Shown: piece after piece, positions 3,621 to 38,090 of the stretch
How the letters are laid out: each line of letters opens with the position of its first letter
Position numbering within the stretch: position 1 is the stretch's first letter
DNA from: a virus
Virus record (IMG/VR): IMGVR_UViG_3300030319_000027
Location: 1-58,779 of that record
Reading direction: 5' to 3' (one strand)
DNA: 58,779 nucleotides
The notes under the pieces: generated by a model
What the model was told of the DNA's origin: nothing
Databases searched by the model: none
Seen by the model: only the letters and a program-made list of their open reading frames with translations
Position numbers and translations under genes: made by a program

Positions 3621-3952
3621 GTTGCGTTTTTTGCGGTCTTGTCCTCAGTATCAGTTGCCAGCAGAGACTTAGAAGCGTCCACAAACATCTCAAGCAGCAC
3701 AGCCATCAGCTCTTCCTTCTCGTCGATGTGGGCAAACATTTCGTCCACGACTTTACGCTTGATGCCACGATTCCGGGCGATAAACGCGCCGTAGAACAGG
3801 GCGCGGGAGTTGGACAGCAGGTTGGTCATCTGGGTGTACTGGCCAATCTGAAAGCCTGCGCGTTCGGTAGCTTCTGCGCTCTCACGGGTGAAAGTCAACT
3901 CGTAAGTGCTCTTGCCGTCGGGGGAATGAAAATTGATAACCTTTGCAGCCAT
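3605..3952 (-). CDS. Tail assembly chaperone (gpG-like)
   Basis: 115-aa ORF between the major tail protein and the tape measure. It ends just after an A_AAA_AAC slippery site. Confidence 0.75.
   Translation of the reverse strand: MAAKVINFHSPDGKSTYELTFTRESAEATERAGFQIGQYTQMTNLLSNSRALFYGAFIARNRGIKRKVVDEMFAHIDEKEELMAVLLEMFVDASKSLLATDTEDKTAKNATWEIV
3626..3632 (-). promoter_or_regulatory. Programmed -1 ribosomal frameshift heptamer A_AAA_AAC
   Basis: Plus strand GTTTTTT. The zero frame reads GCA AAA AAC. Slipping back one nt reads AAA AAA CGC AAC GTG GGA GAT, which is the start of ORF 3195..3620. Confidence 0.7.
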
Positions 3953-4036
3953 AATAAATGTTCTCCTTTATAAATAGGGGCAGAACCAAATCCGTTGTTC
4001 AGTTCTGCCCGGTTTGATTGATTCGATTTTTGCGGT

Positions 4037-8270: not shown

Positions 8271-9761
8271 CTATTCGTCCTCTGTTTCTGTTTCCGTGCT
8301 ACCGACATTTGTGCCGGTAGCATCCTGTTTAGGCCGTTCCTGCGGTTTCGGTGCTTTCCCATCTTTGCCCAACTTACCAGCGGCAATCAGGAAAGGCTTG
8401 CTCATTTCGTAAGCAGCCTGCGGGTCAGGGAATAGACCGGGCGTAGTGAACGCCAACTGCGGGTCAATGGGCTGACCGAGCATCTGTGCGAAAATCTGAA
8501 CCTTGCTCTGCTGGTTATCGTACTGGCGGCGCGGCAGTTTGATGTTGATGTCACTTGCCATCAGCTTAGAACCAGCCGTATCACGCAGGATTTTCAACAT
8601 CACAGACAAGCTTTGGCGTTCCGAGAACTTGAACATATTCTCGTACTGCTGCGCCCTTGCTTCTGTGTGATTCCAGCCGTTGCGAACGATAACTGCGCCC
8701 ACGTTGTCAGACGTTGCGTTCTCACTGCCGGTAGCACTAGGCATGGCAGTCAGGCTGCGGTACACGTTCAACATGGAATCAAGCAAGGTCTGGCTCTGCT
8801 GCTGGTCAAGCTCATTCGCAATCTGCGAGACAGAAGCGGGCATACCAGAAGTGGATTTCAGGCACATTGCGCCAAGCTCTTTTACTTGGTCAAGCGCATT
8901 CTTGTCCACAAGGCAGTTTGTAAATACCATGATGGACTGGATGAACTGCGCCACGCCGTCCAAGCGGTTGCTTTCAAGGTCGTTGATGGCATCCAACACA
9001 GGGATAGCCGGTTCAAACAGACCCATGCGCTCCGGGTTGAGCTTGTATTCGACCATCGGCAGCATTCCCAGAGAGTGGTTCTCCGACTTTGTGACCTTGC
9101 CGTTGTCGATTTCAAAGTACTGGTTTGGCGTGTACACGCAAATCAGGTCGTTCAGGTCATTTTGATAATTGCGTGGAATGTGCAGCACGTTGGCAATCGG
9201 ATTGTGACCGATGCCGGAGTTGTAAATCACATACGCCATGTCGGGGTCTGGAACGTCCACCAGCAGGGGCGTTTCGTCTGGGTAGTTGCCACCATACCCC
9301 TTGTCAGGAAGAACGATGCGGTATCCCTGTCCGCACTCCAACATCCACTGCCAGAGCCGCCGATCGAGCGCGTCCTTGCCCTCATACTGCAAGGCGTTGG
9401 ACAGCCGGGCAATTTCCTCACCGTCACCTGTTGCCGTTTCAGACCGCACATAAGAGCAAGGCGTGCCGCTCATATAACCTGTGTAGAAGCCCACGCACTC
9501 GTTGGCATGGTTCTCTACAATGCGGTTGGTGATTTCAGCGTGATACTCCTTCGTGCGATGGAGGACAGGCTGGCTACCCAAGTAGTAGTTGTGTAGGAAG
9601 CGAATCTCATTCTTGTTCAGCAGATGAATAGGTTCTGCCTTGCCCATAACCACTTTCAGCACGTTCGTCTGATTGATTTCCGTCTCCGGCGTTTCAATCG
9701 GTCTGCGTCCGGTCAGCGGATTATTCAAAAATCCACCAACGACCATCTGATACTCAGCCAT
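8271..9761 (-). CDS. Portal protein
   Basis: About 496 aa from ATG 9761, with RBS AGGAAGGAGGA. It has the canonical position in the late operon after TerL. Confidence 0.85.
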   Translation of the reverse strand: MAEYQMVVGGFLNNPLTGRRPIETPETEINQTNVLKVVMGKAEPIHLLNKNEIRFLHNYYLGSQPVLHRTKEYHAEITNRIVENHANECVGFYTGYMSGTPCSYVRSETATGDGEEIARLSNALQYEGKDALDRRLWQWMLECGQGYRIVLPDKGYGGNYPDETPLLVDVPDPDMAYVIYNSGIGHNPIANVLHIPRNYQNDLNDLICVYTPNQYFEIDNGKVTKSENHSLGMLPMVEYKLNPERMGLFEPAIPVLDAINDLESNRLDGVAQFIQSIMVFTNCLVDKNALDQVKELGAMCLKSTSGMPASVSQIANELDQQQSQTLLDSMLNVYRSLTAMPSATGSENATSDNVGAVIVRNGWNHTEARAQQYENMFKFSERQSLSVMLKILRDTAGSKLMASDINIKLPRRQYDNQQSKVQIFAQMLGQPIDPQLAFTTPGLFPDPQAAYEMSKPFLIAAGKLGKDGKAPKPQERPKQDATGTNVGSTETETEDE

Positions 9762-9852
9762 GTGTTCCTCCTTCCTGGCAAAATAAAAAGCGCAGTAAGA
9801 CAAACCTGTTAAGGTCTATCTCACTGCGCCAAAACTGCGCTTCAAAAGCTAT

Positions 9853-10035
9853 TTACTTTTCGGGTGGATGGATGATTTTAACCCATCCTTCTTTCGTATC
9901 TCCTTCGATAACGCCCTTGCATCTGTCGCACTTGAAATGGTATCGTCCGTCCACTTCGCCAAGATAGCGGTTGCAGCGGACGTTCTTATAGATGGGGTTC
10001 TTCCGGATACAAGGGCAACAGATTCTAACTAGCAT
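9853..10035 (-). CDS. Small zinc-ribbon protein
   Basis: 60 aa with the cysteine motifs CCPC, C-X12-CDRC. Confidence 0.45.
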   Translation of the reverse strand: MLVRICCPCIRKNPIYKNVRCNRYLGEVDGRYHFKCDRCKGVIEGDTKEGWVKIIHPPEK

Positions 10036-10203
10036 AAGCGTTCCTTTCGTTGGATTTCTGGAAACAGGCTGTTGAGCACAGACCTGTCAGAAGCTACTGG
10101 GAAACTATTCGCACTTCCAGCCGTGCTATTCTTCGCCCGAAGAAAACCATTGCAGCCTTTACATTCAGTTGTCGGACAGACGTAAACGGGTAAGCTGCAA
10201 TTT

Positions 10204-10281
10204 TGGTGCCGCATAATGGATTTGAACCAATGTATGCCCGGTTATGAGCCGAGTGCTCTAACCATACTAAGCTAATGCGGC
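10204..10281 (-). tRNA. tRNA with anticodon CAT (elongator Met, or Ile2 if lysidine-modified), CCA encoded
   Basis: Hand-folded cloverleaf: GCCGCAT-TA-GCTT..GAGC-A-CTCGG-CTCATAA-CCGGG-CATAC-ATTGG-TTCAAAT-CCATT-ATGCGGC-A-CCA. There is one T-T mismatch in the T stem. The 1:72 pair is G:C, so it is not an initiator. Confidence 0.8.
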
Positions 10282-10289
10282 ATAAAAAC

Positions 10290-10628
10290 CCGGCTTGATT
10301 GGTTAACCGCTGCTCTTTGCAATGTCATGCCTAAACATTACATTGAGAGCCGGGAATAGCGGTGGAGGTTTTGGAGAATAAGTCCATGCAAAGCTAGGTA
10401 GTTGGTTGTGCTGCGTAACGGAATCGAACCGTTGCTTGCCAGCCGTGGGGGAGACAGACTGGCATTCCCCGAACAATTGGAAACGCAACATATAAAGCCC
10501 GGTGAAGGCGAAAGAGTGAGAAAACCTCCACCGGTGAAAGGAGGAATACGCTTGTTGACACGCACGCGAGTAAAATGACAAAACCCCGCGTGCAAGCTAT
10601 TCCTTTAAGGGAAGCTGTAAAACTTCCT
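10290..10628 (-). ncRNA. Candidate large structured non-coding RNA upstream of the tRNA
   Basis: It has its own promoter, and only overlapping stop-free junk ORFs cover it. A long helix pairs 10543-10568 with 10587-10603. There is perfect 12-nt complementarity between 10361-10372 and 10521-10532. Several further hairpins are present. Confidence 0.55.
10409..10489 (-). ncRNA. tRNA-like element (canonical acceptor and T arm, aberrant core)
   Basis: A 7-bp acceptor GTTGCGT/ACGCAGC and a T arm AACGG-TTCGATT-CCGTT fold normally. The 49-nt core folds only as TGCCAG/CTGGCA with a 16-nt loop, plus a possible GGGGA/TCCCC pseudoknot. Confidence 0.4.
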
Positions 10629-10634
10629 GCGTAC

Positions 10635-10664
10635 ATTATAAGCCTTGTCAAGTAGTGAAATCAA
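10635..10664 (-). promoter_or_regulatory. Sigma70-like promoter driving the ncRNA/tRNA island
   Basis: On the minus strand: TTGATT, 18 nt, TATAAT. Confidence 0.5.
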
Positions 10665-10703
10665 ATAAATAGACCCAGCGAACACAATATATTGTGTTTT
10701 TAA

Positions 10704-12371
10704 TCAAAAAGGCCTCTTGACAGGCTCGATTTTACTGATTCCGTTATACAATTCATCGGCAAGCTGTGCCAGACTATCCGGTGCGTCATCGTGCGGAACT
10801 TTGCCAAGCTGCGTAAACATTGTCACCTGCTCCATGAACGCTTTGTACTCTTTCGACTGGTGCTTTTCATCAAGGAAATAGAACCGTTTGATGTCCGGCA
10901 CATACTGGATGATTCTTGACAGCTTGCTTTGACCACTTGGCGCACGCTGGCTGCGAACAGAGCAGTGATAGCCCTGCTGCCGGAGCTGGCTGTCTACCAC
11001 GTCACAGTATTCATCACCGCCGTTGTTGGCTTCTCCACGCACCACGTTGATTTTATGCTGGATGATTTTGCCAACGACTTCCGGGCGGGTCACGGTCTTG
11101 TCTCCGTTATTGAACACAAGGTCAGGGATGAACACAGCATCGCCATACACATAAGCGATAGGACAAGCGGTAAAATCACCGCCGCCCCATGCAATGTCCA
11201 TGACCATGAGCTTGCGATCAGGCTCTCCATCAGGCAGAACGCCGTTGAAATACCGCAGTTCATCGGCAGGGAACAGCAGACCTTCACGCACATAGGGCTT
11301 GCCCATGTATTTTGCCCACCATGTTGCGTCATCAATGCTGGATTTCATATCGGCATAGTAGGCATCGTCAAATCCAACACCGTAGTCATAGTTGAAGTTG
11401 CTGTGTCCGTTCTCGTCCACAGCGGGAATCACCCGGAATCTATACTTCGGGTTGTCTGCATACTGGTTTTGGATGCGTCCCAGAGGGTCAAGCACGTTCC
11501 AGCGTGTGCCGACCATAAGCTCCAATGCGCCCTGCTTTTTACGGTCTTTTAGCTGGTTCAGATAAGCATCGTACTTGTTGTTCAGACGCTCAACGTTCAG
11601 ACTTTCTTCCAAGTCTTCAATCAAGTCATCGCTGTACAGAACGCCGCCCTCGCCGATTTCAACTGCACCAGTCAGCGTACCGCCAATAGAGCGGCAAGTC
11701 AGGGTGGGAAAACGCTTTTTACGGTTCAGGTCAACGCTTTCGTCCTTTGCGCTTTTGTCTACAAGCTGAACATCAGGGAAGATTTTGCCCCAATTATAGG
11801 TCACAGGGTCAGTGATGATAGACAACACTTCGCCGTAGAAGCCATTGGTCAGCTTGTCAGAGTGCCCGCTCATAACCGATGCAACGTCAGGACGGTTGCC
11901 CATTAGCCATGTGATGAAGAAAATGCACAGCGTACTCTTGCCCACGCGAGCCGGAAGACTGACCCCCAAGAAATCTATCCGCTTATAGAACAAATCCTCT
12001 AAGTCATCTGCCAGCACCTTCAGCACTCTGCGTCTAGGCTGATAGAACTTCTTTTCCGGCGCACGATTCCATTCAAGGTAAATGCAATAGCTGTCGAACA
12101 CATCCTTTGATTCAAACAAGTACGTCCGGCTGATAATGTCATAAACTTTCGCCACGCCCTCGCCTGTTTTCATCTTGCTCATCATGGTTGCACAGACAGA
12201 GCGTAGCTCACCAGAGTATTTGTAGGCATCGAACCGCTTGTCTTGCGGCAGGGCATCTCTTAGGTTCACCACCGCCTGAAACCAGTCCTCATAGACCTGT
12301 GCTTCGATCGGATTCTGCTTTGCATACGCTTTGATGCTGTTAATGATGGCAATGCACTGCTTTGGCTGCAT
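10704..12371 (-). CDS. terL: Terminase large subunit
   Basis: About 555 aa from ATG 12371. It has a Walker-A-like LPARVGKST motif, later acidic nuclease-type motifs, and late-operon position. Confidence 0.9.
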   Translation of the reverse strand: MQPKQCIAIINSIKAYAKQNPIEAQVYEDWFQAVVNLRDALPQDKRFDAYKYSGELRSVCATMMSKMKTGEGVAKVYDIISRTYLFESKDVFDSYCIYLEWNRAPEKKFYQPRRRVLKVLADDLEDLFYKRIDFLGVSLPARVGKSTLCIFFITWLMGNRPDVASVMSGHSDKLTNGFYGEVLSIITDPVTYNWGKIFPDVQLVDKSAKDESVDLNRKKRFPTLTCRSIGGTLTGAVEIGEGGVLYSDDLIEDLEESLNVERLNNKYDAYLNQLKDRKKQGALELMVGTRWNVLDPLGRIQNQYADNPKYRFRVIPAVDENGHSNFNYDYGVGFDDAYYADMKSSIDDATWWAKYMGKPYVREGLLFPADELRYFNGVLPDGEPDRKLMVMDIAWGGGDFTACPIAYVYGDAVFIPDLVFNNGDKTVTRPEVVGKIIQHKINVVRGEANNGGDEYCDVVDSQLRQQGYHCSVRSQRAPSGQSKLSRIIQYVPDIKRFYFLDEKHQSKEYKAFMEQVTMFTQLGKVPHDDAPDSLAQLADELYNGISKIEPVKRPF

Positions 12372-13918: not shown

Positions 13919-13947
13919 ATGATAACACATTCTCGTGTCACTGTCAA
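13919..13947 (-). promoter_or_regulatory. Sigma70-like promoter for the HTH-recombinase-TerL transcription unit
   Basis: On the minus strand: TTGACA, 17 nt, TATCAT. Confidence 0.55.
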
Positions 13948-13976
13948 CACCTTCTTGTGTTTTTTGCAAATTTTTT

Positions 13977-14171
13977 ACTATCAATAGGGTGATAAAACGG
14001 CTGTAAACTTTTTCGTTGCTTTACAAACTGTATACTTGAATAATAGCCTTACGAATTATCGAAAAATATCTTTTGAGTTACTATCACTAGGGTAAACTAA
14101 TCCGTTTACGGAAGTACTATCAAATAACGTAAATTTACGTTAGAATGCGTAAAATGTCACAGATGTGTGAC
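13977..14171. repeat. Cluster of protein-binding-type repeats (candidate res/operator region)
   Basis: ACTATCA(A/C)TAGGGT occurs at 13977 and 14080, and ACTATCAAATAACGT at 14116. An 18-bp perfect palindrome TAACGTAAATTTACGTTA lies at 14125-14142. GTCACA-GATG-TGTGAC lies at 14156-14171. Confidence 0.6.
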
Positions 14172-14192
14172 TGAATTATACAAATTGGGCTG

Positions 14193-14221
14193 TTGACAAC
14201 TATATACCAAACGTCTATAAT
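14193..14221 (+). promoter_or_regulatory. Consensus sigma70 promoter (rightward)
   Basis: TTGACA, 17 nt, TATAAT, all exact. Confidence 0.7.
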
Positions 14222-14433
14222 CTAAGACAGCAGAGCACACGATGAATCAGCCAACAACGGTAGATTTATTCTTTGTGGCATAAAAAATAGGCCGTCAGCA
14301 CGACCGACCAAAGTAGCACTGACGACCTATTCCACCACAAAACAGAAGCTGCGCAACCAAGGGCGCAGTCTCAGTTTCTGTTAATTATTATAGCAGAAGC
14401 AGACAGCTTCTGCAATAGAAAGGAGCAAAAAAC

Positions 14434-19360: not shown

Positions 19361-19591
19361 ATAGTCGTAGCGTTCCGGCTGGAATAGTCGTAGCCAATAG
19401 TCGTGGAATAGTCGTAAAATCGTCAGACAATCAGCGTTTGAAAGTCCTATATATAGTATAGCAACGAACTGTCCGCTGATAGTCGCAGAGTAATAGTCGT
19501 AGCGTTTTCTTGCGAGCCATCGGCAAATAGTCGTTTGTTTTTTGTGTGAAATAGTCGTTCGCCTTTTAGGAAAAGAGAGGTGCGATAGTCG
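19361..19591 (+). repeat. Iteron field: nine same-orientation copies of ATAGTCG
   Basis: Copies start at 19361, 19384, 19397, 19408, 19479, 19493, 19527, 19551 and 19585. Further copies lie at 19902, 20756 and 20838. Confidence 0.8.
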
Positions 19592-19631
19592 CTAAGTCAT
19601 CCGACCACCTCAAAAATCACCTCTCGTTCCA

Positions 19632-19744
19632 ATTTCGCATAATTTATTCTTCCGCTAGTTATATCTATTTCGCATAATAACCGTACTTATTATAGTATAC
19701 AGATATAGTTACCCCCCCGATAATCACAGATTATTTCGTATAAT
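19632..19744 (+). repeat. AT-rich region with three 12-mers ATTTCG(C/T)ATAAT (candidate DNA-unwinding element)
   Basis: Copies at 19632, 19667 and 19733, inside a visibly AT-rich stretch at 19600-19870. Confidence 0.6.
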
Positions 19745-20118
19745 AACTTGTGCCATCCGATTTGGTCTGTTCCTGCTCGATTTAATTCCCAGCAACGTAC
19801 TATGGTATCTTAATTAATTCATAGCATTCTACTAGGAATAGTCAATGCAACATTTGTACATATCAAACCGACTACAAAATGAAGTCAATTCTCCATGTGA
19901 AATAGTCGCAGATGGTGATAGGCTAGATGCTGCTACCGTTGAAGGTCACCCGGTCGGCGCGGTGCGCCGGACGATAGAGGGTGACGTAGCGTAGAGGTCA
20001 GCTGGACGGTCTGCCTTTATTCAGCCAATAGAGCTTGACGGCAGATGCTGGTAACGGCTTGCTCTGCTGGCTAACGGTATAGCTTTTGGAGATAGAGGGT
20101 TGTAGGGGGAAAGAACCT

Positions 20119-37777: not shown

Positions 37778-38090
37778 TTGTCGAATTATCGTTGTTTATG
37801 ATGAACATCTTGTACACCTTTCAACGAATTGATTTCTACTTGTGATGCAAACACTTCTCTTGCTGTGCAAATAAATAACGTTAATACGTTATGTTATCGC
37901 TCACTATAGCAAAATTATATTTTGATTGTCAAAACAAAAACCTATGCACATTGAGTACACCGTTGCGTAAAATTGACTTTCATTTTGATAAAATAAGAAA
38001 AAATTAGAGATTATGGAACTTCTTCTTTTGTTTAGTAGAAGATTATTTAACTCTTGTTTATAATCTTGTTTATATATAATGTAAGAATGG

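Follow-up and report, generated by a model that had tools for sequence, protein, structure and literature searches.

ROOL and GOLLD RNAs lie near tRNA islands; GOLLD sometimes has tRNAs in its linker or variable region, and one GOLLD example sits downstream of a tRNA-Met (PMC12286853). HDV-like theta ribozymes sit beside tRNAs in gut phages, with tRNA-Met among their commonest partners, and in HDV-like and theta ribozymes J4/2 begins with a catalytic cytosine that is invariant (PMC10879173). A bulk prediction from IMG/VR delivered 10,006 viral structured-RNA candidates, including tRNA-like candidates and highly expressed candidates of 64-86 nucleotides (nt) in human-gut Caudovirales (Fremin and Bhatt 2023, PMC10690425). 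Here we describe an island of 668 bp at positions 10036-10703 of the IMG/VR virus record IMGVR_UViG_3300030319_000027, the whole stretch of which (58,779 nt) is called the window. The island is best read as a 'moron' between the large terminase gene (TerL) and a small open reading frame (ORF) followed by the portal gene, in a widespread human-gut phage of a Bacillota host. A multi-domain structured RNA of a new class, as judged against Rfam 15, is the favoured interpretation of its product, and support for nearly every helix comes from compensatory changes across about 130 variants from several hundred related contigs. With a probability of roughly 0.5, the island is a non-coding operon punctuated by tRNA shapes, from which RNase P and RNase Z would release pieces that probably act on translation.

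tRNA-punctuated processing has precedents in MALAT1/mascRNA, in mitochondrial tRNA punctuation, in the E. coli 3'ETS-leuZ sponge and in the stable species 1 and 2 RNAs of the phage T4 tRNA cluster. The island resembles these in placing tRNA-shaped elements between structured RNAs in one predicted transcript, with the shape kept where decoding is lost, and a structured element, the pseudoknot PK1, lies directly upstream of a predicted RNase P site, as does the MALAT1 triple helix. It differs in its phage context, in the sequence-invariant acceptor stem of its tRNA mimic, in the lack of homology and in its processing being a prediction. RNAIII and RsaE/RoxS are multi-hairpin RNAs of Firmicutes whose C-rich loops pair with Shine-Dalgarno (SD) sites. 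The island RNA likewise exposes CU-rich or C-rich motifs on stable helices (UCCUUUC, CUCUUUC, CUCCCCC, ACCUCC), but it has no sequence homology to these small RNAs, to which tRNA-shaped modules and pseudoknots are foreign.

Rfam 15 was scanned with the whole window at gathering thresholds and with positions 9700-11000 at E<=10 under permissive filters. The sole match was a tRNA; ROOL, GOLLD, raiA, tmRNA, the group I intron and ribozymes of any kind gave none. Of the weak hits, one to 'Plastid-ycf2' comes from the antisense strand of the tRNA and the others are at chance level. Membership in ROOL (RF03087) was rejected because its covariance model gave no match even at E<=10, and membership in GOLLD (RF01998) because nothing matched the conserved 3' half of that model at the same threshold. 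Location in a phage near tRNA genes is shared with both classes, as are the Gram-positive hosts, the multiple pseudoknots and the absence of a known protein partner, but this context is insufficient for membership. The island RNA is also smaller (about 350 nt upstream of the tRNA, about 590 nt with the leader), has an obligatory non-decoding tRNA mimic and occurs in one phage lineage only. Of the two alternatives offered in a preliminary description of the locus, a ROOL or GOLLD member or a new class, the first finds no match among these models and the second is favoured.

tmRNA was rejected as well. Neither ARAGORN nor Rfam found one, and the mimic shares with tRNA and tmRNA a 7-bp acceptor stem, a 5-bp T stem with a UUCRANY loop, a GG in the D loop and a discriminator A, while differing in its loop of 11-21 nt without anticodon context, in encoding no CCA, and in having no acceptor-D linker, no G3.U70 (position 3:70 is U-A) and no tag ORF or other conserved ORF. 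PK1 follows the strand order of theta ribozymes, P1(5')-J-P2(5')-3-bp P3-...-P1(3')-...-P2(3'), and has a 3-bp CUC/GAG helix, but has no P4, carries a helix in place of L3, has a P1 of only 5 bp instead of 6-7 bp with a first pair C-G or U-A rather than G.U, and lies upstream of the tRNA instead of within 5 nt of a tRNA 3' end. Its junction matching J4/2 varies (UUAACCAAUCA, UAAAUCA, CUUGCUA) and in one lineage is UAAAGUA, without any C. A theta or HDV-like ribozyme was therefore rejected, there being no invariant catalytic C, no P4, a wrong first pair and no Rfam hit of the HDV family. The candidate set of Fremin and Bhatt stems from the same data source, IMG/VR, which holds hundreds of island contigs, and may already contain pieces of the island RNA; no composite architecture or function is described there.

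Covariation in the island RNA

A search of IMG/VR for relatives of the TerL delivered at least 595 confirmed contigs, of which the best 80 were fetched, all at least 96% identical. The island is present in all 80 of these best relatives (of at least 595), two copies being interrupted by the contig end, and is carried by at least 120 human-gut metagenome contigs, mostly of 55-60 kb, that match an island motif; two GenBank faecal phage scaffolds are also among the relatives. The interval from TerL to the small ORF yielded 127 distinct sequences, and motif-anchored extraction from 319 loci yielded 280-285 loci. Three covariance models (R1-R3) made from narrow seeds were used to align all variants, and pairs were counted. 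The variants form about six sequence types, the sixth (L315) being more divergent, and are reshuffled module by module: the types of the 5' domain, of the tRNA and of the linker assort freely, indicating recombination.

Compensatory double changes were found in more than 45 base pairs, with pairing kept at 96-100%, and all helices persist in L315, where new compensations appear. Against dinucleotide shuffles, the fold of the window RNA 10283-10630 has z = -4.7. Within helices G.U exceeds A.C by 467 to 37 (12:1), indicating selection on the minus-strand RNA and not on DNA or on the opposite strand. The preliminary description had proposed a highly structured, promoter-driven RNA beside a tRNA and had set conservation and covariation in related phage contigs as a test; both were found, the compensatory variation lying far above chance and slid-register controls.

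The 5' domain consists of hairpin P1, the long interrupted helix P2 and hairpin P3 (99 distinct sequences; 95.8% of cells paired, with 41-49% in the slid-register control; 28 of 37 pairs double-changed). P1 takes the form GGAGU/GCUCC in divergent types. P2, previously noticed as a long interrupted helix, is real and covaries: both sides have changed in 18 of its 20 pairs, and its three helix segments are 89-97% paired. Its apical loop UUUUGUCAUUUUAC, the site of the motif UUUUnGUCAUUUUUAC, is conserved in five of the six types. The strand that follows P2 has the core UCCUUUC, which is identical to the 3'-terminal anti-SD sequence of Firmicutes 16S rRNA, and is complementary to the SD GAAAGGA(G) at 10048-10041 of the downstream small ORF. 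Further CU-rich motifs are CYUUUC in the P3 loop and ACCUC(C) immediately 5' of PK1.

PK1 had been recognized in part, as a CCCGGCT/AGCCGGG hairpin with a U-run. The helix is real and covaries; it is stem 2 (S2) of a pseudoknot, the crossing stem 1 (S1), which lies inside the loop closed by S2, had been missed, and the U-run is unconserved. Among 82 distinct sequences 99.7% of cells are paired (27-43% in slid registers) and 7 of 22 pairs are double-changed. S1 is 100% paired, with CG<->UA exchanges at two positions (CCGUU/AACGG, UCGUU/AACGA) and the form UCGCU/AGCGA in the sixth type; S2 also occurs as CCUGGCU/AGCCAGG and CCAGGCU/AGCCUGG. In many relatives the U-run is replaced by GGGTACATGAC, UACAUGAC or UUUAUC, so that transcription must run past PK1 into the tRNA. 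An intrinsic terminator at 10289-10356 was rejected because of this variation and because the terminator scan made no call there. A transcription-attenuating riboswitch at the same place was rejected because the U-run and an alternative 13-mer pairing are both unconserved.

That 13-mer is an extended form of a 12-nt long-range complement reported earlier. It is real, spanning 13 nt at 100% in the window (10360-10372 with 10521-10533), but lineage-specific, being strong in about 41 of the 127 variants (those with GGUGGAGG in P3) and at shuffled background elsewhere, and it was ruled out as a core element on this ground. Its formation would destroy P3 and PK1-S1, which are both conserved. No conserved long-range pairing between modules was found among the 127 variants.

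Beyond the tRNA, the leader of the small ORF contains hairpins X, Y and W and a second pseudoknot, PK2. A TTGCAGC/GCTGCAA helix foreseen in the 168 nt after the tRNA is present in the fold and compensated in one divergent locus, hairpin X reading UGUAGC/GCUACA in L315. Hairpin Y is compensated among types (UUCUCC/GGAGAA, UUUUCC/GGAAAA, GUUAGU/ACUAAC). Each stem of PK2 has one exchanged pair, AU<->GC in S1 (117/16) and UA<->CG in S2 (111/21). An alternative leader pairing, CUGGAA/UUCCAG, was rejected, as it is contradicted by 22 uncompensated C-A cells. Hairpin W and the SD form a nearly invariant leader segment (10036-10087) with 93-100% column identity.

The absence of a credible ORF from the 668-bp block, also part of the preliminary description, holds for the relatives. 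Depending on which of the four mechanical ORFs of 10036-10703 is taken, only 8-29 of the 127 variants (6-23%) have it intact, the remainder having frameshifts, stops or lost starts, and the substitutions have neither codon periodicity nor a third-position bias. Small coding proteins were ruled out.

Table 1. Positions of the modules of the island and of the flanking features in the window
Feature	Positions	Strand	Basis and details
Large terminase (TerL)	12425-10704	-	Pfam T7-type terminase RNaseH-like domain
18-nt perfect palindrome AACACAATATATTGTGTT	10681-10698	-	Read from sequence; about 55-70 nt upstream of predicted start
Promoter, sigma-70-type	-35 TTGATT 10664-10659; -10 TATAAT 10640-10635	-	Consensus scan, 10/12 matches; 18-nt spacer
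P1 hairpin GGAAGUU/AGCUUCC	10610-10627	-	Model R3, alignment A10: 92.9% paired, 2 pairs double-changed
P2 long interrupted helix	10542-10604	-	Covariation
P2, 5' strand	10604-10585	-	
P2, 3' strand	10570-10563, 10554-10550, 10548-10542	-	
CCUCCUUUCA strand	10535-10544	-	Core UCCUUUC (10541-10535, after P2) kept in all six types
P3 hairpin CCGGUGGAGG/CCUUCACCGG	10499-10534	-	Pyrimidine-rich loop CUCUUUC; 99.9% paired; 8/10 pairs double-changed
Non-decoding tRNA-like cloverleaf (mimic)	10409-10489	-	Model R1, alignment A5, 62 distinct sequences
Mimic, acceptor stem	10489-10483/10416-10410	-	7 bp, GUUGCGU/ACGCAGC
Mimic, D arm	10482-10479/10469-10466	-	4-bp stem, GG in loop
Mimic, 'anticodon' stem	10463-10457/10444-10438	-	7 bp, 12-nt loop UGUCUCCCCCAC in the window
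Mimic, T arm	10433-10429/10421-10417	-	5-bp stem, loop UUCGAUU (UUCRANY)
Variable linker	10363-10408	-	Sequence comparison; CU-rich motifs UUCUCC, ACCUCC
PK1, H-type pseudoknot with inserted hairpin	10289-10362	-	Model R2, alignment A7
PK1, S1	CCGCU 10362-10358/AGCGG 10311-10307	-	
PK1, S2	CCCGGCU 10354-10348/AGCCGGG 10295-10289	-	
PK1, Pb	CUC 10347-10345/GAG 10315-10313	-	
PK1, Pc	10342-10336/10324-10318	-	
tRNA, anticodon CAU, CCA encoded	10204-10281	-	ARAGORN; Rfam tRNA, 62.2 bits
Hairpin X	10201-10192/10158-10149	-	Fold
Hairpin Y	UUCUUC 10144-10139/GAAGAA 10134-10129	-	Fold and compensation
PK2, H-type pseudoknot	10096-10126	-	137 distinct sequences, 99.6-99.8% paired
PK2, S1	GCAC 10126-10123/GUGC 10114-10111	-	
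PK2, S2	GCUGG 10121-10117/CCAGU 10100-10096	-	
Hairpin W	10087-10078/10072-10064	-	99.7% paired; G.U changes only
SD GAAAGGAA of small ORF	10048-10041	-	Within leader
60-aa Cys-rich (zinc-ribbon-like) ORF	10035-9853	-	Cys-rich ORF in the same predicted transcription unit
Intrinsic terminator, 19-bp stem and UUUUUAUUUU	9789-9830	-	Terminator scan; sequence conserved in relatives
Portal, SPP1-type	from 9803	-	Mechanical TTG start at 9803

The two tRNA-shaped modules

The upstream module, called tRNA-like in the preliminary description, is real: 97.7% of its cells are paired, with 34-45% in slid registers, 11 of 23 pairs are double-changed, and the D, anticodon and T stems covary. Measured against a canonical tRNA it has the cloverleaf with acceptor, D and T arms, and it has neither the 5-bp anticodon stem with 7-nt loop nor recognition by tRNA finders, as ARAGORN made no call and Rfam no tRNA match at E<=10. 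Model R1 of the mimic cross-hits genuine tRNAs at 26-37 bits. Across relatives the 'anticodon' arm has a stem of 6-7 bp and a loop of 11-21 nt that usually contains CUCCCCC. CAAC follows the discriminator A10409, and a CCA is thus not encoded. No variant or type departs from the acceptor-stem sequence or from the A-CAA behind it, an invariance that points to sequence-specific recognition beyond the shape recognition of RNase P. The linker behind the mimic is shortened in one type and is thus partly dispensable. A 10-nt perfect inverted match, TAACGGAATC/GATTCCGTTA, between the mimic T arm (10416-10425) and the end of TerL (10737-10746) is probably due to chance.

The downstream module is an exchangeable tRNA slot. 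In the window it holds the tRNA-CAT that had been called at 10204-10281, confirmed by ARAGORN and Rfam, and a CAU tRNA occupies 209 of 280 loci on at least three unrelated backbones: an elongator-like one, the L001 type, and an initiator-like one with a GAGUGGAGCAG..GGUAGCUCG body. In one variant (L014) the anticodon is UAU, within an initiator-like body. No callable tRNA is present in 68 of the 280 loci (24%), nearly all of which have a tRNA-shaped RNA, of either of two kinds, with homology to the initiator-like group. The anticodon arms of these two are CUUGG-UUA-CCAAG or ACGUC-GAAA-GACGU, the 7-nt anticodon loop being replaced by a UUA triloop or a GAAA (GNRA) tetraloop, and the other arms are retained. 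Single-sequence folding of these anticodon-less variants gave no clean cloverleaf, their tRNA nature being read from the alignment to initiator-like tRNAs. By comparison of these loci, decoding is shown to be dispensable at the slot while the tRNA shape is retained.

Transcription unit and genomic setting

The TTGATT-18-TATAAT promoter seen earlier at 10635-10664 was recovered by the scan and is conserved: although the sequence upstream takes three unrelated forms, the -35 and -10 boxes are retained at 93-100%, and TTGA and TAnAAT persist in five sequence types. The position of the promoter predicts a transcription start near 10629-10627. A palindrome given before as 16 bp (ACACAATATATTGTGT, 10697-10682) is likewise real and extends to 18 nt (10698-10681). 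It occurs in one upstream sequence type, the commonest, is absent from the other upstream types and is possibly a regulator-binding site. The terminator, a strong one, lies 3' of the 60-aa ORF and ahead of the portal gene. With its conserved promoter and terminator, the island looks like an autonomous transcription unit of about 845 nt. The portal gene, having this terminator directly upstream, needs read-through, antitermination or a promoter of its own. The terminator overlaps the mechanical TTG start of the portal gene at 9803, and the true start is probably further downstream.

The gene order around the island, all on the minus strand, is TerL, island, 60-aa ORF and portal. The block does separate TerL from the portal gene, as had been stated, but the 60-aa ORF and the terminator intervene before the latter. 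Comparison of the window with L002, L005 and others gives two strongly diverged alleles of the 60-aa ORF, MLVRICCPC... and MVAKVRCKRP..., with RYLGEV[DE]G in common; the 90 nt that precede them are nearly 100% identical. It has no Pfam match, and homologues were found only within this phage family. Owing to this restriction, and to the lack of similarity to the small ORF of Clostridium phage Maintenon, it was rejected as a widespread partner of the RNA.

The 58.8-kb window has 49% GC and appears to be essentially one phage genome. Encoded are a DnaB helicase, a Rep3 initiator, a serine recombinase, a GH25 lysin and a capsid E protein; AntA/Bro antirepressors and a PAPS-reductase-like domain are also present. 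This combination, with its plasmid-type Rep3 initiator, suggests that the phage lives in a Gram-positive host as a temperate or plasmid-like element. A Pfam scan of the 54 phage ORFs gave no RNA-handling partner enzyme. Four other ORF-poor stretches of 240-440 nt were noted on a crude ORF map (13929-14370, 19431-19844, 37778-38069 and 3795-4036); none matched Rfam at gathering thresholds.

The nearest isolated phage is Maintenon, on [Clostridium] innocuum, with 51% TerL identity, which makes a gut Bacillota host probable, Erysipelotrichaceae and Lachnospiraceae being candidates. Models R1 and R2, run with filters off, found no island copy in relatives at 50-61% TerL identity; the distant relatives searched were Maintenon, MT836094, a prophage in a Bacillota metagenome-assembled genome (MAG) and a partial Bacteroidales MAG contig (66% over the part present). 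Their TerL-portal junctions hold other inserts or nothing. On these comparisons the island is shown to be confined to one phage lineage, and the TerL-portal junction is an insertion hot spot (L191 4700-5700, L193 4929-5128).

At its junction Maintenon has a 46-aa ORF only, the phage having its tRNAs, for Trp and Gln, upstream of TerL instead. The junction of the Bacillota MAG prophage (TerL 61%) carries a reverse-strand ORF of 220 aa, flanked by an inverted repeat, CACAATATAT...ATATATTGTG, that resembles the palindrome of the window. Some island contigs are far longer than the usual 55-60 kb: L207 (OOCQ01000046.1) has 96,962 nt, L094 85,140 nt and L077/L111 68,528 nt. Prophage integration or concatemer formation could explain such lengths, and these contigs might show what the host is.

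tRNA punctuation and its rivals

Under the reading as a tRNA-punctuated operon, the island's own promoter would drive about 845 nt comprising P1-P3, the tRNA mimic, linker and PK1, the tRNA slot, the leader, the ORF and the terminator, with the two tRNA-shaped modules acting as punctuation. RNase P would cut at 10490|10489 and 10282|10281, and RNase Z or a host equivalent after the discriminators, near 10409|10408 and 10204|10203. The expected products are a 5' RNA of about 139 nt, the tRNA mimic, a linker-PK1 RNA of about 127 nt, the tRNA and a leader-ORF mRNA; the 3' end of the 127-nt RNA would lie a few nt beyond PK1 and be protected by the pseudoknot. The freed RNAs, with exposed CU-rich or anti-SD-like motifs, would most likely act on translation, and could do so by pairing with SD regions or by mimicking tRNA or the 16S 3' end. 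In the mimic the acceptor stem, the T arm and the D-loop GG were kept while the anticodon arm was free to vary, and as an explanation of the whole arrangement tRNA punctuation would be the most economical mechanism. The exposed CU-rich motifs and the two tRNA shapes make translation the suggested target, which remains speculative.

Several points weigh against this reading. Transcription, cleavage by RNase P and RNase Z and the stability of the products are all read from sequence. Fitting of the alignments to the models biases them towards structure, and the sequences are related, so that independent events approach the number of types times modules, far below the cell counts. Hairpin W is without covariation, the comparison neither supporting nor contradicting it, and the 3' leader alone has no significant extra stability relative to shuffles (z = -1.7). 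The UCCUUUC strand and the SD are both invariant, which makes covariation uninformative on their pairing, and complements of conserved loops (AAAATGAC, GGGGGAG) are about as frequent in the phage genome as chance predicts. The UUUUU after PK1 in the window itself could terminate some transcripts. Finally, the invariance of the mimic acceptor stem exceeds what RNase P needs and suggests that the stem is read by an additional partner.

That invariant stem could instead be a tertiary or quaternary contact within one large ornate RNA of about 350 or 590 nt, a ROOL/GOLLD-like RNA-only or ribonucleoprotein machine, possibly an oligomer or cage, which would stay assembled covalently or non-covalently with the tRNA-shaped modules as integral parts. 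Such an RNA is considered unlikely. Its dense structure, with many pseudoknots and helices from the start site to the ribosome-binding site, and the absence of an evident partner protein among the 54 ORFs would fit, as would a phage-encoded RNA that both adjoins and contains tRNA or tRNA-like modules, ROOL and GOLLD being found near tRNA islands (PMC12286853). The models of these two classes, however, show no similarity; a canonical tRNA must be excised in order to function, which would break the chain; and the independent exchange of modules by recombination, like the lack of conserved pairing between them, suggests loosely coupled parts.

A cis-acting leader (riboswitch, T-box or attenuator-like) that senses a ligand, tRNA, protein or ribosome and controls the tRNA, the zinc-ribbon ORF and the portal is decidedly unlikely. 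A conserved set of mutually exclusive structures was not seen in the 5' 350 nt, Rfam gave no riboswitch or T-box match, and a leader would have no use for a tRNA mimic of its own with an invariant acceptor stem. The UUUUU after S2 in the window and the 13-nt alternative pairing, competing with P3 and PK1-S1, would speak for it, but both are unconserved. The position upstream of the small ORF and the portal on the same strand is in its favour, masking of the small-ORF SD by the UCCUUUC strand is conceivable, and PK2 and hairpin W are nearly invariant directly upstream of that SD; a cis-regulatory role for PK2 and W alone is plausible.

More doubtful still is a decoy against host defence, in which tRNA shapes and a strand resembling the 16S 3' end soak up nucleases or toxins that target tRNA or rRNA, or in which the shapes are CCA-tagged or aminoacylated for a non-ribosomal purpose. 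Phage tRNAs do counter tRNA-cleaving defences, and the invariant acceptor stem implies sequence-specific recognition; in both tRNA-shaped modules the fold was selected while decoding was lost, and initiator-like bodies with altered anticodon stems are present. Anticodon nucleases, on the other hand, recognise anticodon loops, precisely the part that was replaced, and no cognate enzyme is encoded among the 54 ORFs (Pfam).

A decaying tRNA array, a recombination scar or a DNA-level signal (pac site or origin) devoid of RNA function, although compatible with a variable insertion hot spot, mosaic modules and an almost invariant 90 nt before the small ORF, such as recombination linkers can be, is extremely improbable and largely refuted by the covariation, and also by the one-strand G.U excess, the conserved promoter and a precise swap of anticodon loops for stable tri- or tetraloops where random erosion would be expected.

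Every member examined carries the island, which is thus probably important for the phage in the gut. Its RNA would join the short list of large structured phage RNAs beside tRNAs with a mysterious function, such as ROOL and GOLLD, and combines an unusual pair of features: a mimic that never decodes and has an invariant acceptor stem, and a tRNA slot in which decoding is optional. As one slot is filled by decoding tRNAs in part of the genomes and by loop-replaced tRNA shapes in others, the family offers a natural experiment that opens tests of non-decoding roles of phage tRNA-like RNAs and of the use of tRNA punctuation by bacteria or phages to make regulatory RNAs. The three covariance models and the exact coordinates provide an entry point for mining of RNA-seq data, RNase P and RNase Z assays and structure determination. 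A bolder and rather unlikely possibility is that the island is a phage mimic of the translation-initiation machinery, with two non-decoding tRNA-shaped RNAs and a copy of the 16S anti-SD presented on pseudoknotted scaffolds. If this were true, a host or phage factor would read the invariant acceptor stem, and the mimic would capture ribosomes, initiation or maturation factors or defence nucleases aimed at tRNA or rRNA, or would self-assemble into an RNA particle; translation would then be reprogrammed or protected late in infection, in a manner so far undescribed, by a very common phage of the human gut.

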